A stretch of DNA of 64,000 nt from an uncultured Verrucomicrobiae bacterium (lineage in GTDB: Bacteria; Verrucomicrobiota; Verrucomicrobiia; Limisphaerales; UBA11358), in the NCBI GenBank assembly GCA_963708525.1, contig CAVPTH010000009.1, forward strand, positions 94,648-158,647, given 5' to 3'. Below, piece after piece: positions 10,179-37,751 of the stretch (positions are counted from its first letter, which is position 1; each line of letters starts with the position of its first letter). Position numbers and translations under genes: made by a program. The notes beneath the pieces were generated by a model. The model ran no database searches, was not told where the DNA came from, and saw nothing but the letters and a program-made list of their open reading frames with translations.

Positions 10179-10189
10179 ACCAAAGGTTC

Positions 10190-11518
10190 ATGACCTCTTC
10201 GTTGCTTCAGCTGCTGATTTGTCTGGTCGTAGGCGTTGGCGTCATCATCCTGTTGACGGCAAGATACCGGGTGCACGCCTTTTTCGCGCTGTTGATTGCT
10301 TCATTTCTGGTGGGATTGGGGACACAACTTCCGGTTCCGGATCTGATTAATGCCATCAAGGAAGGCTTCGGCAATATTATGAAGTCTTTGGGATTGATCA
10401 TCGTTCTGGGAACGGCCCTGGGTGTGTTGCTGGAACATACCGGGAGCACCCGGGTAATGGCGGGTTTCATTCTGCGAAAAGTCGGAGAACGACATGCGAC
10501 CCTGGCGATCAGTCTTACGGGCTTCATCGTCGGGTTGCCCATTTTTTGTGACTCGGGATATATCGTTCTTAGTGGATTAAGCCGGTCGCTGGCCCGGCGA
10601 ACCGGCATCTCCATGGTAGCGATGGCGGTTTCGCTGGCGGCAGGACTGTATGCCGTGCATTGCCTGATTCCGCCACATCCCGGGGCGACGGCCGCTGCCG
10701 GCGTCATCGGCGTGGATTTCGGGAGATTGATTTTCTTCGGAATTCTGGTGGCGATTCCGGCCACGATAACCGGTTATTTGTGGGCTGATATTGCCGGCAG
10801 GAAGATTCCCGTGTCGGTTGCCGAAGAGGAAATCATGCCCGAAGAAACGTCCCAACCACCCTCGGTGATTAAAGCGTTTTTGCCCGTGGTAGTGCCGATT
10901 GTTCTGATTGCCGTCCGATCCTTTCTTTCCATCCAGGTATCCGCCGTCCAAGGCTGGTGGTTTTCGGCACTGCTCTCGTTGGGTGATCCGGTTATAGCGC
11001 TGGCGATCGGCGTGTTACTGGCAATGAATTGCCATCGGTCCTGGAGCACAGAAACTCTGGGACATTTGCTGCAGGAAGCGGCGGAAAAAGCCGGCGGTAT
11101 CCTGGTTATCATTGGGGCGGGAGGAGCTTTTGGGGCAATACTGGCCGCGGCTGACATCGGCCGGCATCTCAGTCAATCCTTGGCATTGGACAGCCTGGGC
11201 ATTTTATTTCCCTTTTTAATCACCTTCATCTTAAAAACAGCACAGGGATCGTCCACTGTCGCCATCATCACGGCCGCTTCCATCGTTCAACCCCTGCTGC
11301 CGGCGCTGGGGCTGGCGACGGGGAAAGGCCCGTTGTTCGCCGTGTTGGCCATGGGCGCCGGATCCATGATGATTTCCCACGTAAACGATGCTTACTTTTG
11401 GGTGATCACAAAATTCTCCGGACTGGACGTGAAATCCATGCTGAAAGTTCATTCCGTGGCTTCCGTGCTGATGGGGCTGGTTTCCTTGCTGACGATTTAC
11501 CTGTTGTCCCGGTTCTGA
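10190..11518 (+). CDS. GntP-family (gluconate:H+ symporter-like) permease
   Basis: A polytopic membrane protein of about 442 aa. The start is set at MTSSLLQLLICLVVGVGVIILL (ATG 10190). GntP-like segments include FCDSGYIVL and KTAQGSSTVAIITAASI. Confidence 0.8.
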   Translation: MTSSLLQLLICLVVGVGVIILLTARYRVHAFFALLIASFLVGLGTQLPVPDLINAIKEGFGNIMKSLGLIIVLGTALGVLLEHTGSTRVMAGFILRKVGERHATLAISLTGFIVGLPIFCDSGYIVLSGLSRSLARRTGISMVAMAVSLAAGLYAVHCLIPPHPGATAAAGVIGVDFGRLIFFGILVAIPATITGYLWADIAGRKIPVSVAEEEIMPEETSQPPSVIKAFLPVVVPIVLIAVRSFLSIQVSAVQGWWFSALLSLGDPVIALAIGVLLAMNCHRSWSTETLGHLLQEAAEKAGGILVIIGAGGAFGAILAAADIGRHLSQSLALDSLGILFPFLITFILKTAQGSSTVAIITAASIVQPLLPALGLATGKGPLFAVLAMGAGSMMISHVNDAYFWVITKFSGLDVKSMLKVHSVASVLMGLVSLLTIYLLSRF

Positions 11519-11580
11519 CCGTAACTCCGTTGCGCATAATGGGCGTTGCCAAGTGACGGTGGGTCGACAAAGATTGCGTT

Positions 11581-12066
11581 GTGCATTTCCGCGATAAAAT
11601 CATTGCCTGGAACCAATTGCCGGAATGGCGCGCCGCCGTGCGGGCCAAGGGCAAAAAGCTGGTCGTGACCAATGGTTGCTTTGACATTTTGCACCTGGGA
11701 CACGTGACTTATCTGGAATCAGCGCGCAACCTGGGTGACGCTTTGCTCGTGGGTGTAAATGGTGACGGCTCCGCGCGGGAATTGAAAGGTCCCGGCCGGC
11801 CGGTAAATCCGGAATCGGACCGGGCCGCCGTTTTGGCGGCCCTGGCCAGCTTGGACGGAGTCTGCATTTTCCCGGAAACCAGGGCGGTGAAATTCTTGGC
11901 GGCCACGCAGCCGGATATTTATGTTAAAGGCGGTGATTATACACCGGACACGCTCGACCAGGATGAGCGCCACACGGTTGAATCCGCCGGCGGGAAAATC
12001 GTGATCATCCCCTTCGTGCCCGGCAAATCCACCACGGCACTGCTGGAAAAAATTTCACGGTTGTGA
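11581..12066 (+). CDS. hldC: D-glycero-beta-D-manno-heptose 1-phosphate adenylyltransferase (stand-alone RfaE domain II / HldC-like)
   Basis: 161 aa with the cytidylyltransferase fold motif VVTNGCFDILHLGHVTYL, then ..RPVNPESDRAAVLAALASLDGVCIF and YVKGGDY. GTG start. Its stop overlaps the next gene's start. Confidence 0.85.
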   Translation: MHFRDKIIAWNQLPEWRAAVRAKGKKLVVTNGCFDILHLGHVTYLESARNLGDALLVGVNGDGSARELKGPGRPVNPESDRAAVLAALASLDGVCIFPETRAVKFLAATQPDIYVKGGDYTPDTLDQDERHTVESAGGKIVIIPFVPGKSTTALLEKISRL

Positions 12067-13133
12067 AGATTCTGGTCATTTCCCTCGCCGGTATCGGCGA
12101 CACACTCATTGCCACTCCGTTGATCCGCGAGCTGCGCGAGAATTTTCCCGGGGTGACCATTGATGCGTTCGTCAGGTGGCCCGGAGCGAAAGATTTGCTG
12201 GAACATAATCCGAACGTCAACCGCGTGTTTCAGAAAGACCTCATCTCCTGTGGAAAATTCGAGGTGGTGCGTTTCTTCCGGTCATTGCGTCGGGAACGTT
12301 ACCAGCTTTCCATCAATACACATCCGCAGGGCCCAAGGCTCTATCGCGTCGCCGCCTGGCTGGCCGGTGCGGAAGTCCGCATCAGTCATGAATATGAGCG
12401 TTTTTCCTGGATCGACCGGTTGCTGATGACCGGCTCGCTGCCGCAGGATTATTCGCGACACTCGATTGAGAACAATTTCGACGTGTTGCCGTTGATTGGT
12501 GCGAAGAAAAAACTGGCAGCGCATGAGATGGAATTTTATCTCGAACCGGGTGATGTACGGCTGGCGGGTGATTTTCTGGCCAGACACAATTTATCCGGCC
12601 AGAAGCTCCTGGGGATCCACGTCGGTTCCGGTGGAACCAAGAATCTCCGGCTCAAACGCTGGCCGTTGAAAAACCACGCCGGCCTGGTGCGACGGTTGAA
12701 CCAGAAACGGCCGGACATCCGGATCTTGCTTTTCGGCGGGCCGGAAGAAATCAAGGATCATCCGGTCGTGCTCGCCCAGGCGAATCCCGTTCTGACACTG
12801 GAAGTTAAAACTGAAAACCTGCGGCAGACCGCGGCATTGATGAAACGATGCCATGCCTTTTTGAGTGTCGACACCGTGCTCATGCATGTCGCGGCGGCAA
12901 TGAAAGTACCCCATCAGATTGTCATCGAAGCGCCCACCCTGAATGCGACCAACCTGCCTTATGGCAACGCGTTTACTCTGGTGAAAAACCCCGTCTTGGC
13001 GGGACGAAACCTGAATTATTACCGTTACGATGGCGGTGATATCAAAGGAACGCACGAAGAACTGGTGGCGTGCATGGCGTCCATCACCATCGACAACGTT
13101 TATGACGCAGTAAACAGGCTGATTCAGCCCTGA
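12063..13133 (+). CDS. Glycosyltransferase family 9 (heptosyltransferase-like)
   Basis: 356 aa. N-terminus MKILVISLAGIGDTLIATPLIRELRENFPG and GGPEE...D..LMHVAAA are typical of GT9. Confidence 0.85.
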   Translation: MKILVISLAGIGDTLIATPLIRELRENFPGVTIDAFVRWPGAKDLLEHNPNVNRVFQKDLISCGKFEVVRFFRSLRRERYQLSINTHPQGPRLYRVAAWLAGAEVRISHEYERFSWIDRLLMTGSLPQDYSRHSIENNFDVLPLIGAKKKLAAHEMEFYLEPGDVRLAGDFLARHNLSGQKLLGIHVGSGGTKNLRLKRWPLKNHAGLVRRLNQKRPDIRILLFGGPEEIKDHPVVLAQANPVLTLEVKTENLRQTAALMKRCHAFLSVDTVLMHVAAAMKVPHQIVIEAPTLNATNLPYGNAFTLVKNPVLAGRNLNYYRYDGGDIKGTHEELVACMASITIDNVYDAVNRLIQP

Positions 13134-13138
13134 TAAAA

Positions 13139-13858
13139 CTACAAAGCAAATCCCGCCGCCTTGGCGTCGGCCGCAAACGTCTTTACGGTGTCCAGCGACA
13201 TTTCCGGCAGCCCCGTCCCGACCAGCTTCATCGCCTTGTTCAAAATATCGTGCGGCACGGTGACAATTTTGCAGCCGCATTCCTCCGCTTGAAAAATATT
13301 CAATACTTCACGCACGCTGGCCCAGAGCAGTTCGGCCTCGGGCAACCCCGCCAGGATTTTATTGGCCTTCACCATGTGCGGCATCGGATCCTGCCCGACA
13401 TCGGCAATACGCCCGGCAAACACCGAAACCACGGCGGGCACTTTGGGATTGAGCGCCTTCGCAACCCCGGCGATCTGTTCCTCGGTGAAAATGGCGGTGA
13501 TATTGAGCTTCACGCCTTCGCCGGCCAGCTCGCGCACGAGCGACAATGAAGATTCGCTGCGCGTGTTGGTGATGGGAATCTTGACATAGACATTCTTCGC
13601 CCAGTCCTTGATTTTCAGCGCCTGCCGCCGCATTTCCGGAAATTCATCAGAGAATACTTCGAAGGAAATCGGCTTTCCCGTGATGCTTTTCAATATGTCC
13701 CGCGCGAACGCCTCGTAATCGTGCACTCCCACTTTGCGCATCAGCGTGGGGTTGGTCGTCATGCCCTTGATCAGCGGGTTGTTGTTCAACTGAAGCATTC
13801 CGGCTTTATCCGCACCATCGGCAAAAAGTTTGATCTTGAGACTGGCCAAATTTTTCAT
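13139..13858 (-). CDS. tal: Short-form transaldolase / fructose-6-phosphate aldolase family
   Basis: Start set at MKNLASLKIKLFADGAD. Has GMTTNPTLM and VYVKIPITN motifs. Confidence 0.85.
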   Translation of the reverse strand: MKNLASLKIKLFADGADKAGMLQLNNNPLIKGMTTNPTLMRKVGVHDYEAFARDILKSITGKPISFEVFSDEFPEMRRQALKIKDWAKNVYVKIPITNTRSESSLSLVRELAGEGVKLNITAIFTEEQIAGVAKALNPKVPAVVSVFAGRIADVGQDPMPHMVKANKILAGLPEAELLWASVREVLNIFQAEECGCKIVTVPHDILNKAMKLVGTGLPEMSLDTVKTFAADAKAAGFAL

Positions 13859-13896
13859 GTGGTTCACAAGATAAAACAACCCGGCCAATCTTCAAC

Positions 13897-14466
13897 TTAT
13901 TTCACTTCCGCCAGGATGATTTCAGCCGCTTCCAGCAGGTTTTTGACACAAAAATCAGGTAGCCGCTTCAAGTCTTCCGCATAACCGCGATCAATAAAAA
14001 TGGTCCGGCAACCGGCCGCGTGGCCACAATCCACATCACGCCAGCGGTCGCCCACCATCCAGCTTTGCGCGAGGTCAATGCCCAGTTCGCGCGCCGCACG
14101 CAGCAACATGCCCGGTTTGGGCTTGCGACAGTCGCAATCCGACAAATCCTTTCCCGGGTGATAACAAACTTCCACCCGGTCGAGCGGCAACCGCCGGCGC
14201 ATCTCCGCGTGAATCTCCTCGACCGCTTGCTGTTTTAAAGTGCCACGGCCGACGTCCGGTTGATTGGTCGCCACCACGAGCAGAAAACCCGACTGTTTCA
14301 AACGACGGCAGGCCTCCGGCACCTCGGGAAAGATTTCAAATTCGCTTAAATCCGCTGACGGATACGGTTTGCCATCGCGTTCCAGGGCACGGTTGATGAC
14401 GCCATCCCGGTCGAGAAAAACAGCGCGCGCGCCAGGGGACTTCTGAGTTTTAGAGATTTCAGACAT
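13897..14466 (-). CDS. gmhB: D-glycero-D-manno-heptose 1,7-bisphosphate phosphatase (HAD-IIIA)
   Basis: AVFLDRDGVIN (DxDGxxN), VVATNQPDVGRG, C..CDCRKPKPGML and VGDRWRDV. Confidence 0.88.
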   Translation of the reverse strand: MSEISKTQKSPGARAVFLDRDGVINRALERDGKPYPSADLSEFEIFPEVPEACRRLKQSGFLLVVATNQPDVGRGTLKQQAVEEIHAEMRRRLPLDRVEVCYHPGKDLSDCDCRKPKPGMLLRAARELGIDLAQSWMVGDRWRDVDCGHAAGCRTIFIDRGYAEDLKRLPDFCVKNLLEAAEIILAEVK

Positions 14467-14475
14467 TGGCGCGCG

Positions 14476-14507
14476 AATGACTAATGACTAAAACCTAATG
14501 ACGAATC
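14476..14507. repeat. Left imperfect inverted repeat flanking the four-helix-bundle gene
   Basis: AATGACTAATGACTAAAACCTAATGACGAATC pairs with the reverse complement of 14921-14956. 29 of 32 positions match, with one 4-nt indel. Confidence 0.8.
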
Positions 14508-14550
14508 AATGCCGAACCGCGAAGAATAAAGATAATAAAGGGAACCCATC

Positions 14551-14934
14551 TCATGACTTCCTCCAGATTGCGGCAAAAATAAGGTGTAATTCCTTTGCTT
14601 CCCGCCAAAGTTTGCGAGCGTCGGTCTTCAATTCCGGTTCAGCAGAGACAATCATCCGTAACCAAAGCTTGGTTTCGCGCGACTCTTTCCGACAGGTCCC
14701 AATCTTATTTTTGAAATCCTTTTTAGAAACCGCGTCATCTGCCTCGCAATAATTTGCCGCCACGCTTGTTCCAGAGCGGACGAACTGATCAATCAAGGGC
14801 AGAGTCACGGTATTCTTGGGAACCGTTTTGGCAAAACGAATCACAGCTTCGCCAAATACTGCGGTGCGTTCTTCCAAATCAAATGAAGTCCGCCCATTGG
14901 GTTTGTCATTCGGAATTGGAGATTCATTAGTCAT
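14551..14934 (-). CDS. Four-helix-bundle protein (23S rRNA intervening-sequence protein / Avd family, TIGR02436/PF05635-like)
   Basis: 127 aa. ..QFVRSGTSVAANYCEADDAVSKKDFKNKIGTCRKESRETKLWLRMI matches the family signature (RSGTS.GANY.EA...SK.DF..K....KE..ET..WL). Confidence 0.85.
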   Translation of the reverse strand: MTNESPIPNDKPNGRTSFDLEERTAVFGEAVIRFAKTVPKNTVTLPLIDQFVRSGTSVAANYCEADDAVSKKDFKNKIGTCRKESRETKLWLRMIVSAEPELKTDARKLWREAKELHLIFAAIWRKS

Positions 14935-14956
14935 TAGGGTTTAGGAATTAGTCATT
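14921..14956. repeat. Right imperfect inverted repeat flanking the four-helix-bundle gene (contains its start codon and overlaps the gmhA stop)
   Basis: GATTCATTAGTCATTAGGGTTTAGGAATTAGTCATT. Its reverse complement aligns to 14476-14507. Confidence 0.8.
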
Positions 14957-15548
14957 TCGTAGACTCCCACTTGGTTTGGGCGACTTTAAGCTTTGGGTGG
15001 GAGACGAACAAATGCCAGATGACAGCCTGAAACGCCTCGCTGTGGGGCGTGATGTGTTCCGGGTTTACCGTCGGCACAATCACACAGGCTGTTGCTTCTT
15101 TGGCCGTGTAGCCACCGTCGCGTCCCACAATGCCAATAACGGAAGCACCGGCTTTTTTTGCGACTTGAATGGCGCTGACCAAATTCGGACTGACATTCTT
15201 CTCAAGATTGCCGCCACCCACCGAAAAAATCAGCAGACCGTCTTTTGCGTTCAGGCGGCTGCCCTTGAGCCATTCGGAAAAAATCGTTGCCCACCCTTCG
15301 TCATTGGTCCGCGCGGTCAACTCGGAAACATTGTCCGTGGGCGCGTAGGCCTCGAAACCGCAGATTTTGCGGAAGTCATTGACGGCATGGCCGGCGTTGC
15401 CCGCACTGCCGCCGACGCCAAGGATGAACAGGCGCCCGCCGCGTTCGCGTACGCGTGCCAGTTCCCCGGCGGCCTTTTCAATGGCGTCAACATTCAGTTG
15501 CGCGACAACTTGTGATACTTCCCCCAGAAATTCTTTTGCAAAGCTCAT
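14952..15548 (-). CDS. gmhA: D-sedoheptulose 7-phosphate isomerase (SIS domain)
   Basis: 198 aa. GGRLFILGVGGSAGNAGHAVNDF and LLIFSVGGG are typical of GmhA. Confidence 0.9.
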   Translation of the reverse strand: MSFAKEFLGEVSQVVAQLNVDAIEKAAGELARVRERGGRLFILGVGGSAGNAGHAVNDFRKICGFEAYAPTDNVSELTARTNDEGWATIFSEWLKGSRLNAKDGLLIFSVGGGNLEKNVSPNLVSAIQVAKKAGASVIGIVGRDGGYTAKEATACVIVPTVNPEHITPHSEAFQAVIWHLFVSHPKLKVAQTKWESTK

Positions 15549-15589
15549 GGTTTATTTTGGTCGGATGAAAACACAACCTTGTGAAAATT

Positions 15590-15716
15590 GAAATCCTAAT
15601 TCCTAAATCCGAATGACTAAAGAATGACGAAGCCTGAATAACAAATGGCAAGCCTGCAATGGTATTTGTCATTTGGAATTCTTTAGTCATTCGGATTTAT
15701 GATTTAGTCATTCCCG
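15590..15716. mobile_element. Gene-less palindromic (MITE-like) element related to the repeats around the four-helix-bundle gene
   Basis: A perfect 21-bp inverted repeat, AAATCCGAATGACTAAAGAAT, at 15605-15625 / 15678-15698 with a 52-nt loop. It shares GAATGACTAA and the 12-mer TTTAGGAATTAG with the cassette ends. An extra TTAGTCATTC at 15704-15713 overlaps the stop of the upstream gene. Confidence 0.6.
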
Positions 15717-16460
15717 TTGTCGTCGTTGAAGTAATTTTTCCAACTCGGCCAAACCTGCCGGCGAACCCATTTCGTAAAAGCGCTCGTGTACTTCGTAACC
15801 GGCCAGTTGCTTTTCATGGACGAGTTTGCCCATCACCCCGGCTAGATCGAATGGCTGGTCCGGGGCATAGGTATTGAAAACCAACGCCTTGAACAGGCTC
15901 AATCCGTAATCGATGTGCCGCATTTCCGGCCGGCGATTTTTCTTATCGTAAACTGCAATTTCCCCGTCGCGGAAGACCACATTGCTGGAATCATAGCGGC
16001 CTTCATTGCGATAGACGGTCATGCAACCGAGTTTGCCGCTGCGGCGGAAAAACTCCGCCACCGGACGATATTCCACTGGCAGATAGGAATCGCCATAGAG
16101 CACAAAAAATTCATCCCCCAGCAGTGGCAGAGCCTGTTTAACCGCGCCACCCGTACCGAGCAGCCGAGGACCACCCGCCGTTGCTACGCTCTGGCGCGGC
16201 GAGTCAAACGAATAATCGAGCTGTATGCCAAACGCCGAGCCGTCGCCAAAATCGCGCTGAATCATCTCACCCAAAAAGCCGACACACAATACGACCCGAC
16301 GAATGCCGCGCGCACGGAGCAGTTCGAGCTGGTGCGCCAGAAATGGTTTCCCGGCCACCGGTACCAGGGATTTGGGGATTTTCTCCGTGATGGGCCGCAG
16401 GCGCGTCGCGAGTCCACCGGCGAGAATGGCTACCGGAATTTCCAAAGCAGGAGATGTCAT
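15708..16460 (-). CDS. hddC: Sugar-phosphate nucleotidyltransferase, probably D-glycero-alpha-D-manno-heptose 1-phosphate guanylyltransferase (HddC-like)
   Basis: 250 aa. The N-terminus AILAGGLATRLRPITEKIPKSLVPVAGKPFL is the NTP_transferase signature. The specific function is inferred from adjacency to gmhA, gmhB and a GHMP kinase. Confidence 0.7.
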   Translation of the reverse strand: MTSPALEIPVAILAGGLATRLRPITEKIPKSLVPVAGKPFLAHQLELLRARGIRRVVLCVGFLGEMIQRDFGDGSAFGIQLDYSFDSPRQSVATAGGPRLLGTGGAVKQALPLLGDEFFVLYGDSYLPVEYRPVAEFFRRSGKLGCMTVYRNEGRYDSSNVVFRDGEIAVYDKKNRRPEMRHIDYGLSLFKALVFNTYAPDQPFDLAGVMGKLVHEKQLAGYEVHERFYEMGSPAGLAELEKLLQRRQRE

Positions 16461-26440: not shown

Positions 26441-27490
26441 ATGACGACAAACGAAAGCAAAGTGTTGGTCAGCGTCATCATAGTAAATTACAACGCGCAA
26501 ATTTGGCTGCGCCGTTGTTTCGAGTCGCTGGCCGCGCAGACGATCTTCCCCAGGATCCAGGTCATCGTCACCGACAATCTTTCCAGCGATGGATCGGATC
26601 AAACGGCACAGGAACTCATGGTTGGCTGGAAGGATTCTGTGTTCATCCAGAACGGCGAAAATCTGGGCTTCGGTCGCGCCGTCAATCGCGCGGCCAAGCA
26701 CGCATCAGGGAAATATCTATTTCTTCTCAATGCGGATGTCTGGTTGGAGCGCGATTGCCTCGAACAACTCGTGGCCGCTGCCGAACGCGGGCAGGCTGCT
26801 GTTGCCGGCATTTTGGTGCTGAATTATGATGATGATTCATTTCAAAGCAATGGTGCCAGCGGTTTCGATATTTGTGGCCTTTGCGTAAGGCCACAGCAAG
26901 GAACAAACCCGGAGGAATTGTTTGCCGCCAACGGCTTTAATTTCATACGCAAGGATGTGTTTTATGAAATTGGCGAAGAGGACGGATCCTTTTTTCTTTA
27001 CAACGAAGAGGTCGACCTTTCATGGCGTGTGTGGATCGCCGGACATCGAATCGTTTATGCGCCGGCAGCCCGAATTCATCATCGAGGCGCGGCGTCAATC
27101 AATCCCAAAGGCGGCACCAGGATGGTCGAACTGCGTACCAGCGACACCAAACGATTTTACAGCAATCGCAACCACCTGCTCTGTTGGTTGAAAAACTCCC
27201 AGCACATCCTTCTGTTGTTTCTGGTTCCCGCGATATTGTTTCTAACCTTAGAAGGACTTGCCGGTGCAATCTGGTCCAGGCGTTGGGCTTTCTTCCGACG
27301 GACGTGCTGGGACGCCTTCGCCGACTGCTGGCGGTTGCGCACGCATATCCTTTCATCCCGCCTGCGTGTCAGTGCCTTCCGACAGCACAGCGATTTCTGG
27401 ATGTTACGCTTCTTCTCGTTCCGACTCAGTCGATGGGATGAAATCAGAAACATACTCAAGCTCGGGTTACCCAAGGTGGATGTGCGATAA
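26441..27490 (+). CDS. Glycosyltransferase family 2
   Basis: 349 aa with VSVIIVNYNAQIWLRRCFESLAAQT, VTDNLSSDGS and LLNADV (DxD-like). Confidence 0.85.
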   Translation: MTTNESKVLVSVIIVNYNAQIWLRRCFESLAAQTIFPRIQVIVTDNLSSDGSDQTAQELMVGWKDSVFIQNGENLGFGRAVNRAAKHASGKYLFLLNADVWLERDCLEQLVAAAERGQAAVAGILVLNYDDDSFQSNGASGFDICGLCVRPQQGTNPEELFAANGFNFIRKDVFYEIGEEDGSFFLYNEEVDLSWRVWIAGHRIVYAPAARIHHRGAASINPKGGTRMVELRTSDTKRFYSNRNHLLCWLKNSQHILLLFLVPAILFLTLEGLAGAIWSRRWAFFRRTCWDAFADCWRLRTHILSSRLRVSAFRQHSDFWMLRFFSFRLSRWDEIRNILKLGLPKVDVR

Positions 27491-27765
27491 CCAACACTTC
27501 AACTCCGCCTGGAAGAAGCAATAATTCAAGGAACAACAAAGGGATATTTCATTTATGGGCAATCACTTGGAGATCTTGTTTCTCAGGAGGCCCAAGCCTA
27601 TGAGCAACACTTCAGGCTGAGCTGCACTGATGAGATCCTTCTTGACAAATATACTTTACTTCCCCAAAATTCTGGTCAGTCGTCCCGTTTGGGAGAACAC
27701 GTAAAGCTTGCTGTATTAGTTTCCGAAGCATCCGGAACACTGGCCACTAAAATAAAAGGAATAGT

Positions 27766-28485
27766 ATGACTCCTCAAGTTAAACATTCGTTGCCATTTTT
27801 GGCTACATTGTTCATATCTCTGATCAATGTCTCCGCACAACCCAGGCTGACAAGCATCGCTCTCTTCAGCGCAGACCCATCGGGCAACTATTTCGGCCCA
27901 GACCTTTGGGACACACAACCCGGCAACATCTCCAACCAGGGATATTTTAATGTCTGGATACAGAGCGGCGGCATTTTCCTGAGCGGGCCCTTGGATTCCC
28001 AAACGCAACCAAACATCACACTGTCGTCTGGTGTGAATTCGTTTACGCTCAATGCCGATCCGGGCGCCGATTATAGCCAGTTCGGGATCAGTTTGTTCTT
28101 CAATGGATCTGCCACACCGGCGATTTCGGCGTTTGGTCCGATGCAGGCGACGCCGGGACTGCATAGTTTTGCTGCAGATGGCGCGGGAAGCACACCCGGA
28201 CTTGCCATTGGCTCGCGTGTTCCTGGCGCCGGCACGCTCAGCTTCGTAACTGGCGGCGAGGTGATTACTTTGACCGATTACTTCTGGGCAACCCCATCCG
28301 TCTACAATCAAGATCTGGTTGGGGAATACACAACTGGAGCAAATGGACAACCCGATTATGTTGGAGGGATAACTCTTTCCGTGATCCCGGTACCAGAACC
28401 TGAAGTGCCGGTTTTGGCAATCGGCCTCCTGACGGGTGTGATCATGATCCGTCGCAGGATGCAGACCCGCAGGAGCTTACTATAA
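27766..28485 (+). CDS. PEP-CTERM sorting-domain secreted protein of unknown function
   Basis: It has a signal peptide (LPFLATLFISLINVSAQP). The C-terminus VIPVPEPEVPVLAIGLLTGVIMIRRRMQTRR reads as a PEP motif, a TM helix and an Arg cluster. Confidence 0.8.
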   Translation: MTPQVKHSLPFLATLFISLINVSAQPRLTSIALFSADPSGNYFGPDLWDTQPGNISNQGYFNVWIQSGGIFLSGPLDSQTQPNITLSSGVNSFTLNADPGADYSQFGISLFFNGSATPAISAFGPMQATPGLHSFAADGAGSTPGLAIGSRVPGAGTLSFVTGGEVITLTDYFWATPSVYNQDLVGEYTTGANGQPDYVGGITLSVIPVPEPEVPVLAIGLLTGVIMIRRRMQTRRSLL

Positions 28486-28697
28486 CCGAGAGGCATTTAA
28501 TTCACCCCACAACGCTCTGTTATTACGAGATACAGATTCGCGATACAAAATATGCCAGCGCAGCCATAAGAAACTCGCTGGCAGAGTTCGGCTGGTGCCA
28601 GAACAAACGATAAGAATGGTTTTTGGGCGGCGCCGTCTCGGTTTCTACGATAAAAACTGGCTTTGCCCGGAAAAAGCAGTCTGGCAGGCTGGGGCAA

Positions 28698-29567
28698 ATG
28701 CTCAAAATCCTGGTGACTGGCGGAGGTGGATTGCTGGCTCATGCGCTGCGCGAGTTTCGACCTGCGGGCTGTGGATTGATTTTTCTTTCCCATGCGGATT
28801 TTGATTTGACCGCATCGGCGAGCATGCAGCGGCAGTTGGCCAGGATTGCCCCCGATGTCGTCATCAACACTGCTGCCTATAACCAGGTGGACCGTTGTGA
28901 AATCGAACGCGAACTGTCATGGAATGTCAATGCGGTCGGACCACAGCAACTCGCGGAACTTTGTGCACATGCCGGCATCCGTCTCGTCCACTATGGTACG
29001 GATTACGTTTTTGACGGCGAGAAGAAGTCGCCTTATCTCGAAACCGATGCGCCAAATCCATTGAATCATTACGCCGCGGGAAAGCTCGCAGGCGAACAGG
29101 CCGTGTTACGCGCGTCCGCAACCCATTTGGTCCTGCGCACCAGCTGGGTCTTTGGCTGGCACCCGACGCAAAAGAAGTCCTTTGTCCACACCGTGCTGCG
29201 TCTGACGCAGGAAGGTCGGGAACTGAAAGCAGCCATCGACCAGGCGTCGGTGCCGACGTATGCACCCGATCTCGCGCAATGGACCTGGGAACTTGTCCGC
29301 ATGAGCGCCAGCGGTTTAATTCATGCTGTTAATGACGAAGGCGTTAGCCGCCATGACTGGACGCTCGCGATTTTGGAGGCGGCGGCGCAAGCCGGCTTGA
29401 TCCGGCAACCCCCTCCGGTCGACAAGGTGACAACCGCGTTCTTCAATTCTACTATGCGCCGTCCGGCTTACACGATCTTGAGCAACAAAAAGCTGACCCA
29501 TTTGCTGGACCGCCGGCCGGGTTCGTGGCGTCCGGGTCTGCGAAAAATGCTCGCTCAAATGAAGTGA
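28698..29567 (+). CDS. rmlD: dTDP-4-dehydrorhamnose reductase
   Basis: Start at MLKILVTGGGGLLAHAL, with YGTDYVFDG, YAAGKLAGE (YxxxK) and LRTSWVFG. Confidence 0.85.
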   Translation: MLKILVTGGGGLLAHALREFRPAGCGLIFLSHADFDLTASASMQRQLARIAPDVVINTAAYNQVDRCEIERELSWNVNAVGPQQLAELCAHAGIRLVHYGTDYVFDGEKKSPYLETDAPNPLNHYAAGKLAGEQAVLRASATHLVLRTSWVFGWHPTQKKSFVHTVLRLTQEGRELKAAIDQASVPTYAPDLAQWTWELVRMSASGLIHAVNDEGVSRHDWTLAILEAAAQAGLIRQPPPVDKVTTAFFNSTMRRPAYTILSNKKLTHLLDRRPGSWRPGLRKMLAQMK

Positions 29568-31416: not shown

Positions 31417-31659
31417 GTGAGCGTTGTGGTGGTGAACTATAACTGCAAAAAATGGCTCGGTCGTTTTTTCCCTTCGTTACGCGCGCAAACGATTTTCGAC
31501 CGTACCGAAGTCATCATGGTGGATAACACATCAACGGATGGTTCGGCAGAGGTTTGTGAAAAAGAAATGGCGGGATGGCGGAACGGAGCCTTCCTCCCCA
31601 CCGGTGGCAATTACGGCTTTGGCGGTGGCAGCAACCGCGGCACGAAAATTCCAAGCTGA
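31417..31659 (+). pseudogene. Truncated N-terminal remnant (80 aa) of a family-2 glycosyltransferase
   Basis: VVVVNYNCKKWLGRFFPSLRAQTIFDRTEVIMVDNTSTDGS...GFGGGSNRG parallels residues about 8-95 of the intact GT2 at 26441-27490. It ends before the DxD motif, and no continuation appears in any frame. Confidence 0.7.
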
Positions 31660-31797: not shown

Positions 31798-34700
31798 TCA
31801 CTGGCTGAGCAGCAAGCGATAAAATCGATTTGTCTCCGTCATCTGAACCGACTCCAGATATATACCACCTATTTGAATGGGCGGATTGGACACAATCACC
31901 CAATCTGCCGGAGACAGACTGGGAGTGGTTTCCAGTACAAAACCAGGTGAGCTCTGGGGCCAGAAGATATATAAGTTATTGCCTGATGGCGTCGCTCCGA
32001 GCGTCGGCGGCAGATGGACGGTCAGCACCGCGTTGGAACTGAGGACGGAATTGACGAGATTGCTTACCAGTACGGCGTATTGACCTGCCTGACTCAACTG
32101 AACATTGGTCAACACCAGGGTCGCGTTGGTTGCATTGGCAATGTTGGTCTGATTAAAGTTCCATTGATAACGTAACGGCATTGTGCCGGAGGCGGTCACA
32201 GCAAAACTTGCGGTGCCTCCAACATAAATCGTCAGGTTCGTAGGTTGGGCGGTGATCATCACCGGCGCCAAAACCGTCAAGAGAGCATTGGAACTGGTGA
32301 TGGAGCCGTACGCGTTGGTCACCAGAACCGAATAGCTGCCCGCGTTGGTCAATTGGGCATTGGCCAGGATTAATGCAGCATTGGTCGCCCCCGTGATGTT
32401 CGTAGTATTGAACATCCACTGATAACTCAAGGGCGGTGTCCCGTTTGCACTGACAGTAAAGGTGGCGGTCTGGCCCACCACCACCGTCTGATTGGTCGGC
32501 TGCATCGTAATCACCGGGAGCTGGCCAGGCGGACACTTGCCCCCGCTACCAGCCAGGTAAATCGCCGCCATCTCATTGGAGGACAACACACGATTGTACA
32601 CACTGAATTCGTCCAGGCTCCCTGCCCACAGCGTCGGCGGCACATCGCTTGCCCGCACACCCAAATAGAAGTCATAGCTGGTCTGCGGAACAATGTTGGT
32701 GGGAAAAGTTGTTTGAGCTACATTGACTCCGTTTAAATAAATCGTCGCCACTCCTGACGTTCGATCATAAGTAAACGCCACATGTTGATACACATTGGCA
32801 TGAACTACCCCGGCCGGCGATGCCAGTGTGTGATAACCATTGGGGGGATTGTTATTGGCGTCCTGGATGTTGAGGTACAAACATCCCGGTCCGGTGCCGT
32901 AGGAATCCCATAGGTGCACGCCCCATACACCTCCGTGGCTGTGGTTGTTCCACTCTACGATCGGCCGGGGGGCACTGTCGACGACAGAAGGATCAATCCA
33001 ACCTTCAACGGTCATCCCGTTCCCAACCCCGACATTCAGGCCGGAACTGGCCGGTACTCCTACATAGGCATTCGTTCCATTTAAATAAAACGCCTGTCCC
33101 ACCTCGCCATTGCTATAACTCAGGCCGCCTGCCGGCACTCCGTTGTTGGTTCCGATTAGGTCATTGGCATTGCCTTCCCCCGGCCACCAGCTCACCAATC
33201 CCGACGGCGCTGGATCACAATTGGTCGGAGATAGAACAACGGTCAACATCGCATTGGAACTGAGTGTGGAGCCGTACCTATTGGTCACCAAAACCGAATA
33301 GAAACCCGCATTGGTCAATTGCACGTTGGCTAGGATCAAGGAAGCATTGGTAGCCCCCGCGATGTTCGTTGTATTAAATGCCCAGTGATAGCTCAATGGC
33401 GGTGTCCCGCTTGCACTGACTGAGAACGCCGCCGTTTGACCTCCGATTACCGTCTGGTTGGTCGGCTGCATCGTAATCACCGGGGGCTGGCCAGGCGGAC
33501 ACTTACCCCCGCTTCCAGCCAGATAAATCGCCGCGATCTCGTTGGAGGATAATAGCCGATTGTACACACTGAATTCATCCAGGCTCCCTGCCCACAGCGT
33601 CGGCGGCACATCGCTTGCCCGTACACCTAAATAGAAATCATAACTGGTTTGCGGTACGATGCCGGTGGCAAACGTTGTCTGCGCTACATTGACACCGTTC
33701 AAATAAATCGTCGCCACTCCTGACGTTTGATCATACGTAAATGCCACATGTTGATACACATTGGCATGAACTATCCCGGCCGGCGATGCCAGTGTGTGAT
33801 AACCACCGGGGGGATTGTTGTTGGCGTCCTGGATGTTGAGGTACAAACATCCCGGTCCGGTGCCAAAAGCAGAGCTTGGCTGGGAATCCCATAAGTGCAC
33901 GCCCCATACACCTCCGTGGCTGTGGTTGTTCCACTCCACGATCGGCCGGGGGGCACTATCTACGACAGCAGGGTCAATCCAACCTTCAACCGTAAGACCA
34001 TTGTTGGTCCCCACATTCAGACTCCCACTGGCCGGTACTTCTACATAAGCATTCGTTCCATTTAAATAAAACGCCTGTCCCACCTCGCCATTGGTATAAC
34101 TCAGGCCGCCTGCCGGCACTCCGTTGTTGGTTCCGATTAGGTCATTGGCATTGCCTTCCCCGGGCCACCAGCTCACCAATCCCGACGGCGCTGGATCACA
34201 ATTGGTCGGAGGCAGAACAACCGTCAGTATGGCATTGGAACTGAGCACCGAACCCGCCAGATTGCTCACCATCACTGCGTAGGTGCCTGCCTGGTTGAGC
34301 TGGACGTCATCCAATATCAGCAAGGAGTTCGTTGCGCCGCTAATGTTCGTCGTATTGAATGTCCAGTGATAGCTCAAGGGCGGTGTCCCGTTTGCACTGA
34401 CGGTAAAGGTGGCTGTCTGGCCCACTACCACTGTGCTGTCAGCGGGTTGGTTGGTGATGACAGGGGCCATGGGGGTAAAACACTTACCTCCACCACCAGC
34501 CAGGTAGATCGCCCCAATCTCGTTGGAGGATAATACCCGGTTGTACACACTGAATTCATCCAGACTCCCCGCCCACAGCGTCGGCGGCACATCGCTTGCA
34601 CGTACACCTAAATAGAAATCATAACTGGTTTGCGGTACGATGCCGGTGGCAAACGTTGTCTGCGCTACATTGACACCGTTCAAATAAATCGTCGCCACTC

Positions 34701-35103
34701 CTGACGTTCGATCATACGTAAATGCCACATGTTGATACACATTGGCATGAACTATCCCGGCCGGCGATGCCAGTGTGTGATAACCACCGGGGGGATTGTT
34801 GTTGGCGTCCTGGATGTTGAGGTACAAACATCCCGGTCCGGTGCCATAAGCAGAGGCTGACTGGGAATCCCATAAGTGCACGCCCCATACACCTCCGTGG
34901 CTGTGGTTGTTCCACTCCACGATCGGCCGGGGGGCACTATCTACGACAGCAGGATCAATCCAACCTTCAACCGTAAGACCATTGTTGGTCCCCACATTCA
35001 GACTCCCACTGGCCGGTACTTCCACATAAGCATTCGTTCCATTCAAATAAAACGCCTGTCCCACCTCGCCATTGGTATAACTGGCCGCCGGCCGGCGTAC
35101 CAT
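31798..35103 (-). CDS. Repetitive LamG (concanavalin-A-like lectin) / Ig-like domain surface protein, (LamG-Ig)x3 plus Ig plus a C-terminal ...FYRLLLSQ domain; lacks its own signal peptide
   Basis: 1,101 aa containing three units of about 327 aa. Each unit has a LamG-type segment (GEVGQAFYLNGTNAYVEVP...GWIDP...IYLNGVNVAQTTF...LDEFSVYN) and an I-set-like Ig domain (PVITMQPTNQTV..GQTA.F.V.A.GTPPLSY.W.FNTTNI.GATN..L.L..VQL..AG.Y.V.V.N). Confidence 0.85.
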   Translation of the reverse strand: MVRRPAASYTNGEVGQAFYLNGTNAYVEVPASGSLNVGTNNGLTVEGWIDPAVVDSAPRPIVEWNNHSHGGVWGVHLWDSQSASAYGTGPGCLYLNIQDANNNPPGGYHTLASPAGIVHANVYQHVAFTYDRTSGVATIYLNGVNVAQTTFATGIVPQTSYDFYLGVRASDVPPTLWAGSLDEFSVYNRVLSSNEIGAIYLAGGGGKCFTPMAPVITNQPADSTVVVGQTATFTVSANGTPPLSYHWTFNTTNISGATNSLLILDDVQLNQAGTYAVMVSNLAGSVLSSNAILTVVLPPTNCDPAPSGLVSWWPGEGNANDLIGTNNGVPAGGLSYTNGEVGQAFYLNGTNAYVEVPASGSLNVGTNNGLTVEGWIDPAVVDSAPRPIVEWNNHSHGGVWGVHLWDSQPSSAFGTGPGCLYLNIQDANNNPPGGYHTLASPAGIVHANVYQHVAFTYDQTSGVATIYLNGVNVAQTTFATGIVPQTSYDFYLGVRASDVPPTLWAGSLDEFSVYNRLLSSNEIAAIYLAGSGGKCPPGQPPVITMQPTNQTVIGGQTAAFSVSASGTPPLSYHWAFNTTNIAGATNASLILANVQLTNAGFYSVLVTNRYGSTLSSNAMLTVVLSPTNCDPAPSGLVSWWPGEGNANDLIGTNNGVPAGGLSYSNGEVGQAFYLNGTNAYVGVPASSGLNVGVGNGMTVEGWIDPSVVDSAPRPIVEWNNHSHGGVWGVHLWDSYGTGPGCLYLNIQDANNNPPNGYHTLASPAGVVHANVYQHVAFTYDRTSGVATIYLNGVNVAQTTFPTNIVPQTSYDFYLGVRASDVPPTLWAGSLDEFSVYNRVLSSNEMAAIYLAGSGGKCPPGQLPVITMQPTNQTVVVGQTATFTVSANGTPPLSYQWMFNTTNITGATNAALILANAQLTNAGSYSVLVTNAYGSITSSNALLTVLAPVMITAQPTNLTIYVGGTASFAVTASGTMPLRYQWNFNQTNIANATNATLVLTNVQLSQAGQYAVLVSNLVNSVLSSNAVLTVHLPPTLGATPSGNNLYIFWPQSSPGFVLETTPSLSPADWVIVSNPPIQIGGIYLESVQMTETNRFYRLLLSQ

Positions 35104-35185
35104 TGTTGGCTCCGATTATGTCATTGGCATTGCCTTCCCCGGGCCACCAGCTCACCAATCCCGACGGCGCCGGATCACAGGGCAA
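32260..35185. repeat. Coding tandem repeat, 3 units of about 963-981 bp
   Basis: The Cys codon of CDPAPSG recurs at 35177-35179, 34198-34200 and 33217-33219 (spacing 979 and 981 bp). The out-of-frame track ORFs 33731-33934 and 34712-34915 are the same 67-aa string with 3 differences. Confidence 0.95.
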
Positions 35186-37751
35186 TCACCGTTAAATTGG
35201 CGTTAGAACTAAGTGTGGCGCCGTAAACGTTCGTTATCTCCACCGAGTACGTCCCCGCCTCACTGAATTGCACATTGGTCAAAGTCAGGGTGGCATTCGT
35301 CGCTCCTGTGATATTTGTCGTGTTGAAAGTCCATTGATAAACGAATGGTTTGGTGCCCACCGCCACCACAGCAAACTGGGCGGTTCCGTTCAGACCTACT
35401 GTGACATCGGCAGGTTCCTGGGTAATTACCGGCAGAGAGGGAATAATGGTCAACAGCACATTGGAGCTTATCGCAGTGCCGGCGGCGTTGCTCACAATGA
35501 CGTTGTAATATCCCACGTCGGCCCCGAAAGCATTGCTGATGATCAGATTCGGCGTCGTAGAGCCCGAAATGTTTCCTCCATCTATCAGGTTATTGCTGTT
35601 GTACTGCCACTGATAATATAACGGCAAGCCTCCGGTGGCCGTTACCGTGAACATAACCGCTTGCCCGTCCAACACCGCCTGGTTGGTCGGTTGCTGGTAA
35701 TCGTCGGAGGACTGAGCACCGCCAAAGCAAACTGACGGCTCCTGTCCGACCTGGTCATTCAAATTGGTGAACCAGACCGTCGCATAGTAAGTCCCGACCA
35801 GGAGGTTGCTGGCAACTGAATTCAAACTGATAACTACATTGGTTGCCGGTCCACCATGGGCCAATGTACCGCCACTGGCCGAAGCGTTAAGCCACAATGA
35901 CGTGTTGACCAGGCTCCAAGTCAGCAAATTGGTTCCCACGTTGGTCAGCGAGAAGTTCTGCTTTGTCACGGTGAAAGGACCACCCACCCCGCCCAGAGAT
36001 GTAAATCCGATGTTCGGGGTGATCTGCAGGGCCTCCGGATTGGCCAATGCACTGATCAGCTTTTGTCCATTGGGGGTGCCCCAACCGGTACATAAATCGT
36101 AACCGGTCACTGCGTAGAACTTGGTCGGGCTGAAAGGACTGGTATTGTTGCCAGTGGTGATATCGTGGAAACACGCCGTATAATTAGGACCGCTGCCAAT
36201 CGTATCAACCGCGGGATTGATAAAGCCCACCGCCGGTGCACCCGTAGCCGACGCCTGTTGATTCACCAGTGCTGTAAATCCCGCCCATAGTGGCGCGGCA
36301 CAACTGGTGCCTCCGACGTTGTAATCAGAGCCGTTGGCCCGAACATAAACATTGTCCGCCGTCAACGCTACATCTGGCGTGTTCCGCATTGTCGTCGATC
36401 CCTGGCTGGCCGTCATGTTGATATTCGTCTGCCAAAACGGAATCGGATATTGTGTGCTGATCCCACCGCCGCTGCCTATCCCATTGTCCCAATTCCACAC
36501 CCTCTCGGATACCCATACCCCACTTGCATTGCTCGTAGTCAATGTGGTTCCACCCACTTGAGTGATGTTGGTGCTGTCTCCCGGAAAATCAATCAGTCCG
36601 GTATAGGCATCGTAATCACCGGAAGCATTGTAGAAGGACTGTCCTTGTGCAGCCATCTCCTTCCAGACCTGCTCAGCCGCCGGCTCGGCCGGTCCGTTAG
36701 GGGCATACCAGGAACAACTCAATTGCTTGGCCAGATTGTCCGTGGCCATGCGATTGAGAATGTCCTCAAATGGACTCGGATTTGGAGCTTCGTAAACCAT
36801 CACCCGCGACAATCCGGGTGCCATTGAAATTGCCATTTCGATGTCCAGTGATACTTCTACTTCCCCGCCGGTGTGCGAAGGATTCCCGGTGGCACCATCG
36901 ATCAATACATTCGTCAACGTCACGTTCGGCAAGCCGGCCTTGTTTGCATAGTAAGTAATGTCGCTGGCCGTATAACCGTCGAATTGCAGCAGCCCCACCA
37001 CTTGTCCTGTTCCGTTCAACGTTGTGTCCGGGACATAAGCCGCGCGAAAATCGTTTCCCATGAAGGCGCCGCCGGGACCTGAACCAGCGTTGGATGTTAT
37101 CCCCTGTCCTTGAATCATCGACTTAACCCGATAATGCGGCCGCGGCAACGAATAACTGTTCAGCCCGCCAATACTCAAGATCGGCACCGCCAAATCCACC
37201 GTCGGTTCCTTATCCGGCGCGTAGAACGTTCGCGCTTCTCTCGGATGGTGATACTCCTGCAGGTTCACATGCATTACCCGTTCGATGTCGCCCACCGACG
37301 CGCGCACGTCCACCAGCATCCGGTTGGGATGCACGGTCGTCACCGTCAGCCCGTTGGCTTTGGCAAACGCGATCACTGCCTGATAATCCTGTTCCGTGGG
37401 CCCAAATCGTTCGGTGAACTGTTCGGGGGTCAGGTAATGATGGTAGTTCGGACTGGCCGGGTCATAGATTTCCCGGAGCAAATGGTCCAGGGCTTCGGGG
37501 TTGCGCAGTGGCAACCCGATGGCCAGATTTAAACGTTGGGAACGGTCCATTGCTCCGATGGGTTGCAAACCGGCGGTTGCCGCAGGCAACCGGACGGGCA
37601 CCACCTGCAGCTCAGCTGCTTGGCTGGTGAAAGCAAGCGGAGAAATCGTAACTGCCAAAGTCGTCCCGAGGAAAACGGCAGCCTTTTGGCACCAATTTAT
37701 TCGCCAGTCAACCAACCATTGAAGTATTTCCATAGCAAACTCCTGATTCAT
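35175..37751 (-). CDS. Peptidase S53 (sedolisin/kumamolisin-like) with pro-kumamolisin activation domain and C-terminal Ig-like domains
   Basis: Signal peptide present. The prodomain reads LRNPEALDHLLREIYDPASPNYHHYLTPEQFTERFGP. Catalytic elements are GGEVEVSLDIEM, NASGDYDAY and GGTSCAAPLWAG. There are two C-terminal Ig repeats (PLYYQWQY.., KPFVYQWTFNTTNITGATN). Confidence 0.88.
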   Translation of the reverse strand: MNQEFAMEILQWLVDWRINWCQKAAVFLGTTLAVTISPLAFTSQAAELQVVPVRLPAATAGLQPIGAMDRSQRLNLAIGLPLRNPEALDHLLREIYDPASPNYHHYLTPEQFTERFGPTEQDYQAVIAFAKANGLTVTTVHPNRMLVDVRASVGDIERVMHVNLQEYHHPREARTFYAPDKEPTVDLAVPILSIGGLNSYSLPRPHYRVKSMIQGQGITSNAGSGPGGAFMGNDFRAAYVPDTTLNGTGQVVGLLQFDGYTASDITYYANKAGLPNVTLTNVLIDGATGNPSHTGGEVEVSLDIEMAISMAPGLSRVMVYEAPNPSPFEDILNRMATDNLAKQLSCSWYAPNGPAEPAAEQVWKEMAAQGQSFYNASGDYDAYTGLIDFPGDSTNITQVGGTTLTTSNASGVWVSERVWNWDNGIGSGGGISTQYPIPFWQTNINMTASQGSTTMRNTPDVALTADNVYVRANGSDYNVGGTSCAAPLWAGFTALVNQQASATGAPAVGFINPAVDTIGSGPNYTACFHDITTGNNTSPFSPTKFYAVTGYDLCTGWGTPNGQKLISALANPEALQITPNIGFTSLGGVGGPFTVTKQNFSLTNVGTNLLTWSLVNTSLWLNASASGGTLAHGGPATNVVISLNSVASNLLVGTYYATVWFTNLNDQVGQEPSVCFGGAQSSDDYQQPTNQAVLDGQAVMFTVTATGGLPLYYQWQYNSNNLIDGGNISGSTTPNLIISNAFGADVGYYNVIVSNAAGTAISSNVLLTIIPSLPVITQEPADVTVGLNGTAQFAVVAVGTKPFVYQWTFNTTNITGATNATLTLTNVQFSEAGTYSVEITNVYGATLSSNANLTVIAL

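Follow-up and report, generated by a model that had tools for sequence, protein, structure and literature searches.

The closest described relatives of the gene reported here are of two kinds. Kumamolisin and pro-kumamolisin (MEROPS S53; PDB 1t1e, 1gt9) are peptidases of about 550 aa built as a single module. The Verrucomicrobiota 'stalk' proteins, annotated as 'immunoglobulin domain-containing protein', carry Ig-LamG-Ig modules and a C-terminal tail of the FYRL type. A literature search on sedolisins in Verrucomicrobia returned nothing relevant, and it found no experimental study of the stalk group. That the assembler, the sequencing platform or low coverage can give rise to spurious pseudogenes is well established (Cooley & Wright, 2024, PMC11017572; Cusco et al., 2021, PMC8103633). 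Here we analyzed a stretch of 64,000 nt from an uncultured Verrucomicrobiae bacterium (GenBank assembly GCA_963708525.1, contig CAVPTH010000009.1, positions 94,648 to 158,647), hereafter the window, in which an open reading frame (ORF) for an S53 protease and an ORF for a LamG-Ig repeat protein follow each other on the minus strand (31798-37751). A first-pass annotation had proposed that the two ORFs encode one protein of about 1,980 aa split by two indels. Our sequence comparisons support the view that the 858-aa and 1,101-aa ORFs are fragments of one gene, the S53-LamG gene, for a secreted S53 protease with a lectin/Ig stalk, and they raise the number of indels to four.

One gene in three reading frames

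The S53 ORF reads …SSNANLTVIAL at its 3' end and stops at 35175-35177, as previously noted, and the 1,101-aa ORF begins at MVRRPAASYTNGEVG, with its nominal ATG at 35103. This ATG had been described as internal to the repeat and lacking a signal peptide, and both statements held: it sits within LamG unit 1, and the translation of the 1,101-aa ORF shows no signal peptide after it. Read in the third frame, the gap of about 33 codons between the two ORFs gives the beginning of LamG unit 1, and a coding-frame model changed frame at 35082/35083 and 35180/35181. At the DNA level, there are three tandem LamG-Ig units with a period of 981 nt, each opening with TGTGATCC(R)GCGCCGTCGGG, which encodes CDPAPSG, at positions 35179, 34200, and 33219. 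The LamG cores of the units are 90-95% identical. In agreement with the first-pass annotation, the unit that recurs downstream starts directly past the S53 ORF in another frame, 2 nt beyond the last S53 sense codon and overlapping the S53 stop codon.

Alignment of unit 1 with the corresponding DNA of four relatives (L001, L003, L007, and L002) revealed an extra A in the window only, in the context ACGGTG[A]TTGCC, and the S53 frame is lost three codons before its TGA. It had been suggested that one G of the GGG at 35180-35182 should be deleted. That change does restore the frame, but the base is a different one, as all four relatives place the indel at 35186. Removing the A at this position gives …NLTVLPCDP…, matching the protein encoded by L001 (P0001), and not …LTVIACDP…. 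The shortage of 2 nt in unit 1, also reported earlier, was found again against units 2 and 3 and against L001. Unit 1 reads GGCGGCC--AGTTATACC, the others have GGCC-TG-AGT (units 2 and 3 read GGCGGCCTGAGTTATA(C/G)C at this site), and TG is lacking in unit 1 of the window only. Through this loss, the remainder of unit 1 falls in the frame of the 1,101-aa ORF. The other two indels form a compensated pair inside the S53 ORF that leaves 15 codons out of frame, with EPSVCFGGAQSSDDY in place of (D/E)RQFALAVLSPPTIT; repairing the pair restores ERQFALAVLSPPTIT. The earlier reading of a single gene is supported, and its indels, all small, number four instead of two.

Deletion of the A and restoration of TG produced an ORF of 5,955 nt whose 1,984 codons include no internal stop. 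Judged from the sequence, the length and collinearity of this repaired frame are far beyond chance. An orthologue was present in the metagenome-assembled genome MFD00031.bin.2.149 (L003; CAVPSH010000001.1, a 2.24-Mb contig) as an ATG-initiated ORF of 1,972 aa (9941-15859), to which residues 27-1984 of the repaired protein align in a single frame with 77% aa identity. The closest relative, JGI metagenome contig Ga0669113_0001795 (L001), has 94% nt identity and is syntenic with positions 23446-47758 of the window. Its 1,335-aa protein P0001 matches the S53 ORF with 92% identity along the whole length of the latter and crosses the junction without a break (…SSNANLTVLPCDPVPGG…). The L003 ORF and P0001 share their domain order, junction and flanking genes with the window gene, the same genes lying on both sides of the L003 orthologue, and unlike the window gene they are uninterrupted. 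They differ in their repeats: the gene in L001 (L001 positions 10001-14008) has one LamG-Ig unit, whereas the window and L003 have three. The single unit may be a real product of unequal recombination, or the assembly of L001 may have collapsed the repeats.

The first-pass annotation had proposed comparing orthologues for a single ORF, and besides the collinear L003 ORF, proteins P0001-P0008 were all continuous across the junction, P0002, P0003, P0004, P0006, and P0008 reading …LTVTPCDP… there. Among close relatives, we found no separately initiated S53 and LamG genes with a signal peptide on the LamG protein. We then extended the comparison to 79 metagenome loci retrieved with a 318-aa junction-spanning query. 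One high-scoring segment pair (HSP) covered the junction, from Ig to LamG in one frame, in 72 of the 79, and at 10 of those 72 the S53 domain was in the same ORF as the stalk. Complete S53-stalk ORFs on these short-read metagenome contigs had 1,830, 1,901, 1,935, 2,056, 2,062, and 2,524 aa. A C-terminal query also matched inside the junction-spanning ORF at 15 metagenome loci. Among the best 120 matches to the S53 protein, 49 carried the motif [FYW][FYW]R[LVIA] a few residues from the C-terminus, and most of the named homologues without this tail were annotated as partial. In the window, the FYRL-type tail (…TNRFYRLLLSQ) is found on the 1,101-aa ORF and not on the S53 ORF. Exact-sequence look-ups gave no entry for the S53 ORF or for two intact proteins encoded next to it, a scan of the genome collection gave no genome nearer than 76% identity, and an exact pattern spanning the junction, with or without the extra base, had no match in the metagenomes. 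Across the former breaks, the repaired protein would contain the peptides …NLTVLPCDPAPSG… and …PAGGLSYTNGEVG….

Predicted product and its protein family

The product is predicted to be a secreted pre-pro-S53 serine-carboxyl peptidase of the sedolisin/kumamolisin type, of about 1,984 aa. Its domains would be ordered as signal peptide, prodomain, catalytic domain, BACON-like domain, two Ig domains, three LamG-Ig units, Ig domain, and C-terminal FYRL domain (Table 1). The N-terminus (…AAVFLGTTLAVTISPLAFTSQA/AE) resembles a Sec signal peptide and is taken as a putative one. The S53 prodomain was recognized by PF09286 with 102 bits against a cut-off of 23.5. As in kumamolisin, it is joined to a catalytic domain, and query residues 67-577 align with 1t1e (E=1.5e-53), which we take to be a Ser-to-Ala mutant. 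In this alignment, the segments of the Ser-Glu-Asp catalytic triad and oxyanion Asp are matched (EVEVSLDIE with EVELDIE, ASGD with AAGD, GGTSCAAPL with GGTAAVAPL), and the calcium-site region FHDITTGNN…CTGWGTP is conserved. Autocatalytic removal of the prodomain would be expected by comparison with kumamolisin. Unlike the single-module kumamolisin, the protein has about 1,400 further residues made up of BACON-like, Ig, LamG, and C-terminal domains, and its peptidase activity is predicted from sequence. Although the BACON-like match in the window is below the curated threshold, the same family (PF19190) is listed for many homologues.

In the 1,101-aa ORF, Pfam identified four stretches of Ig_3 and three of Laminin_G_3 (PF13385; E=2.9e-63). 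The best PF13385 stretch covered positions 1-151 of the 151 of the profile, a full-length LamG domain. The Ig domains on both ORFs are of the same I-set/Ig_3 type, as had been supposed. No NCBIfam model matched the repaired protein, either in its first 1,184 residues or in the C-terminal 156. The three concanavalin-A-like LamG domains with their Ig spacers could form a stalk that distances the protease from the cell, or could bind a glycan or protein substrate. The C-terminal domain would serve in export or anchoring. At 41 metagenome loci, counting those where the ORF is not cut by the upstream contig edge, the stalk had no S53 match, so the stalk occurs with other N-terminal heads as well. 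The C-terminal domain also ends these stalk proteins, which suggests a common role in export or anchoring. The window gene shares the Ig-LamG-Ig modules and the FYRL-type tail with the group, and its own N-terminal head is an S53 protease.

The combination of a protease with a LamG-Ig stalk had been presented as unusual. This did not hold, as PF09286 and PF13385 occurred together in 28 of the 120 best homologues. The fusion is common in Verrucomicrobiota, with the window locus as one more member. The S53-Ig-LamG proteins with a FYRL-type C-terminus would form a large, uncharacterised family of surface or secreted proteins in this phylum, which we regard as a modest lead.

Table 1. Positions in the window of the parts of the S53-LamG gene and of frame-breaking indels in this gene and its neighbors (aa, residues of the predicted protein).
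Feature	Position	Strand	Change	Basis
N-terminal fragment (S53 ORF), 858 aa	35175..37751	-		ORF translation and Pfam
C-terminal fragment (LamG-Ig ORF), 1,101 aa	31798..35103	-		ORF translation and Pfam
Orphan third-frame segment LPCDPAPSGLVSWWPGEGNANDIIGANNGTPAGG, LamG unit 1 start	35083..35185	-		Frame -1 HSP and coding-frame model
Putative signal peptide, aa 1-45, …LAFTSQA/AE	37617..37751	-		Translation read by eye
Pro-kumamolisin activation domain, aa 64-186	37194..37562	-		PF09286, E=3.4e-29
S53 catalytic domain, aa 233-577	36021..37055	-		Aligns to 1t1e, E=1.5e-53
BACON-like beta-sandwich, aa 598-649	35805..35960	-		PF19190, 22.8 bits, under curated cut-off 25
Two Ig (I-set/Ig_3) domains, aa 686-762 and 774-841	35229..35695	-		Pfam
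LamG-Ig unit 1	34201..35179	-		Repeat period and unit starts; PF13385
LamG-Ig unit 2	33220..34200	-		Repeat period and unit starts
LamG-Ig unit 3	32266..33219	-	15-nt in-frame deletion vs other units	Unit alignment
Last Ig domain, aa ~1830-1912	32017..32265	-		Pfam
C-terminal ~72-aa domain ending …TNRFYRLLLSQ (stop)	31798..32016	-		Family C-terminal signature
Extra base in S53-LamG gene	35186..35186	-	Extra A on coding strand (T on + strand)	Not in L001, L003, L007, L002
Missing bases in S53-LamG gene, GGCC[TG]AGT	35082..35083	-	Missing 2 nt	Unit and relative alignment
Compensated frameshift pair inside S53 ORF	35696..35739	-	+1 (G) at 35739, -1 at 35696	Relative comparison
GHMP kinase, …PAGTGLGSSG/SFTTALL… (break at /)	~17292		Extra A	Coding-frame model and direct reading, outside L001 coverage
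GT2 glycosyltransferase	~23215		Extra G	Coding-frame model and direct reading, outside L001 coverage
C-methyltransferase, 415 aa	30969, 31179		+1 each	L001 comparison
Membrane protein, 355 aa	~40311		Net frameshift	L001 comparison
Epimerase	40766		-1, near N-terminus	L001 comparison
YfhO-like membrane protein, 870 aa	44332, 44419, 44863		+1 each	L001 comparison

Indels across the window and the cause of the split

We searched the rest of the window for similar breaks by comparing the L001 proteins with it by tblastn, and elsewhere by the coding-frame model, which recovered the known shifts, and by direct reading. At least 13 frame-breaking indels were found in eight genes, the S53-LamG gene and seven others, all between 17 and 45 kb (Table 1). 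Other same-strand frame changes considered as breaks were discarded, being ordinary gene boundaries with a stop beside a start or involving complete Pfam domains. Five affected genes are covered by both L001 and L003, and they are unbroken in both relatives. There were approximately 10 insertions for 3-4 deletions, mostly outside homopolymers (for example GCGGC[T]AATG, GGGA[C]AGC, GTAC[T]CCAC, and TAT[G]CCA for insertions). Between the window and L001, the ratio of nonsynonymous to synonymous substitution rates (dN/dS) was 0.14-0.21 for broken genes and 0.09-0.27 for intact ones, with 0.17 for the S53-LamG gene, and the repaired broken genes contained no in-frame stop. The relaxed selection required of a genuine pseudogene is therefore not seen.

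The organism probably carries one intact S53-LamG gene, the indels being assembly consensus errors. They would be of the sort that long-read or low-coverage data typically contain, with no biological cause. We read the split as an artefact because the relatives are intact, selection is not relaxed and no stops appear after repair, and the same kind of indel breaking seven nearby genes makes an assembly artefact the likeliest cause. With its many single-base indels in conserved genes under unrelaxed selection, the region resembles the spurious pseudogenes cited above, and it is unlike them in that its errors are clustered in one 28-kb stretch. Frame breaks also appear in two of the related metagenome-assembled genomes: two +1 insertions 30 nt from each other (13420-13450) at a LamG-Ig unit boundary divide the orthologue in MFD03044.bin.1.155 (L007) into 1,147 and 464 aa, and the RmlD gene of L003 carries a frameshift (~18322).

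Several points weigh against this reading, beginning with the fact that we infer the artefact from sequence comparison. A 2-nt deletion outside repeats is atypical for a consensus error. The flanking stretches, 0-17 kb and 45-64 kb, showed no indels, and their large genes appear complete by Pfam coverage, including those for a type II secretion system ATPase, a glycogen-debranching enzyme, a GntP permease, and an arginine decarboxylase. All indels fall within an envelope-glycan island, a pattern that would suit genuine decay of the island too; the clustering is compatible with real inactivation of surface functions, and also with artefacts in a variable island of a metagenome that was covered less deeply or differed among strains. 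Finally, in the homologue carried by L013 and L014, the S53 head and the stalk are out of frame at a G11 tract. Given these two sequences, real-looking frameshifts do seem to occur in the S53-LamG family; the sites in the window are not repeats.

Some of these observations favor the alternative that genuine recent mutations inactivated or truncated the S53-LamG gene and several genes of the glycan island in this strain. The product would then be at most an 858-aa secreted S53-Ig fragment without stalk or C-terminal domain, and the 1,101-aa part would be an untranslated or cytoplasmic relic. Surface-structure loci are often lost, the frameshifts are restricted to the island with intact-looking housekeeping genes on either side, and L013 and L014 supply a natural-looking frameshift from two independent samples. 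Nonetheless, we consider this alternative unlikely. Natural pseudogene decay is deletion-biased and slippage-prone, and the spectrum in the window is the opposite, insertion-biased and outside repeats. The affected genes are unbroken in both relatives (94% nt and 77% aa identity), and genes with 3, 4, and 2 indels have an unchanged dN/dS. Bacterial mutation spectra lead us to assume about 10 neutral substitutions per indel in real decay, so that 13 indels should have been accompanied by approximately six stops, and repair left none. Real indels would call for an insertion-biased, non-repeat process that knocked out envelope-glycan genes together with the protease-lectin gene and freed a stalk-less S53 enzyme, which we find quite improbable. 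If true, protease and adhesin modules would have come apart naturally here, and the cell surface would have been remodelled in a rapid and targeted way.

Taking the ORFs at face value, so that an S53-Ig protease would be secreted and a LamG-Ig protein would be made on its own from ATG 35103 (MVRRPAAS…), has in its favor that both are long as they stand and that some family members, such as P0014, are S53-Ig proteins of about 900 aa without LamG. However, that ATG lies inside a LamG domain whose first 33 codons are upstream in another frame, a signal peptide is missing from the 1,101-aa ORF and the C-terminal tail of the family from the S53 ORF, and the orthologues are single ORFs. We regard two separate genes as effectively excluded, with hardly any likelihood left. 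An equally slim chance attaches to a split that is decoded or switched in the cell, whether ribosomes make a programmed +1 frameshift or slipped-strand mispairing causes phase variation. Both breaks would require a +1-type shift, and a homologue has its G11 tract, but at a different site. Neither ACGGTG[A]TTGCC nor GGCC[TG]AGTT contains a homopolymer, a short tandem repeat or a known slippery motif, two consecutive shifts would be needed, comparable insertions of one base are found in seven unrelated genes, and the relatives are in frame with no shift required. Both mechanisms were rejected for the lack of a repeat or slippery site and the presence of the same indel type in unrelated genes.

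In practical terms, the two ORFs should be merged in the annotation and flagged as one frameshifted gene. The region from 17 to 45 kb of the window should be taken as error-prone, with gene calls and any 'pseudogene' counts there unreliable until it is re-polished.

The G11 tract lies at approximately 5113-5123 in L013 and 3665-3675 in L014, two independent bog/peat contigs (70% identity), inside the second Ig domain, and is predicted to be a candidate site of slipped-strand phase variation in this protein family.

Gene neighborhood

The S53-LamG gene lies on the strand opposite to its neighbors, inside a cluster of dTDP-sugar epimerase/reductase, methyltransferase, and glycosyltransferase genes. 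Over the syntenic range given above, the gene order of the cluster is kept in the window, L001, and L003 (77-94% identity). One segment of approximately 1.2 kb (27493-28704), between the GT2 and RmlD genes, is absent from L001. Its ORF at 27751-28485 (plus strand) encodes a 245-aa secreted-looking protein ending …VPEPEVPVLAIGLLTGVIMIRRR, which is PEP-CTERM-like by eye and sub-threshold with the hidden Markov model. We also observed a fragment of 80 aa from the N-terminus of a GT2 glycosyltransferase (31417-31659, plus strand), about 50% identical to the intact GT2 encoded at 26441-27487. The fragment is flanked by the C-methyltransferase gene and by the 3' end of the S53-LamG gene. As it is present in L003 too (15985-16266), it is an old remnant, and it possibly marks the site where the protease gene entered the cluster of glycan genes.

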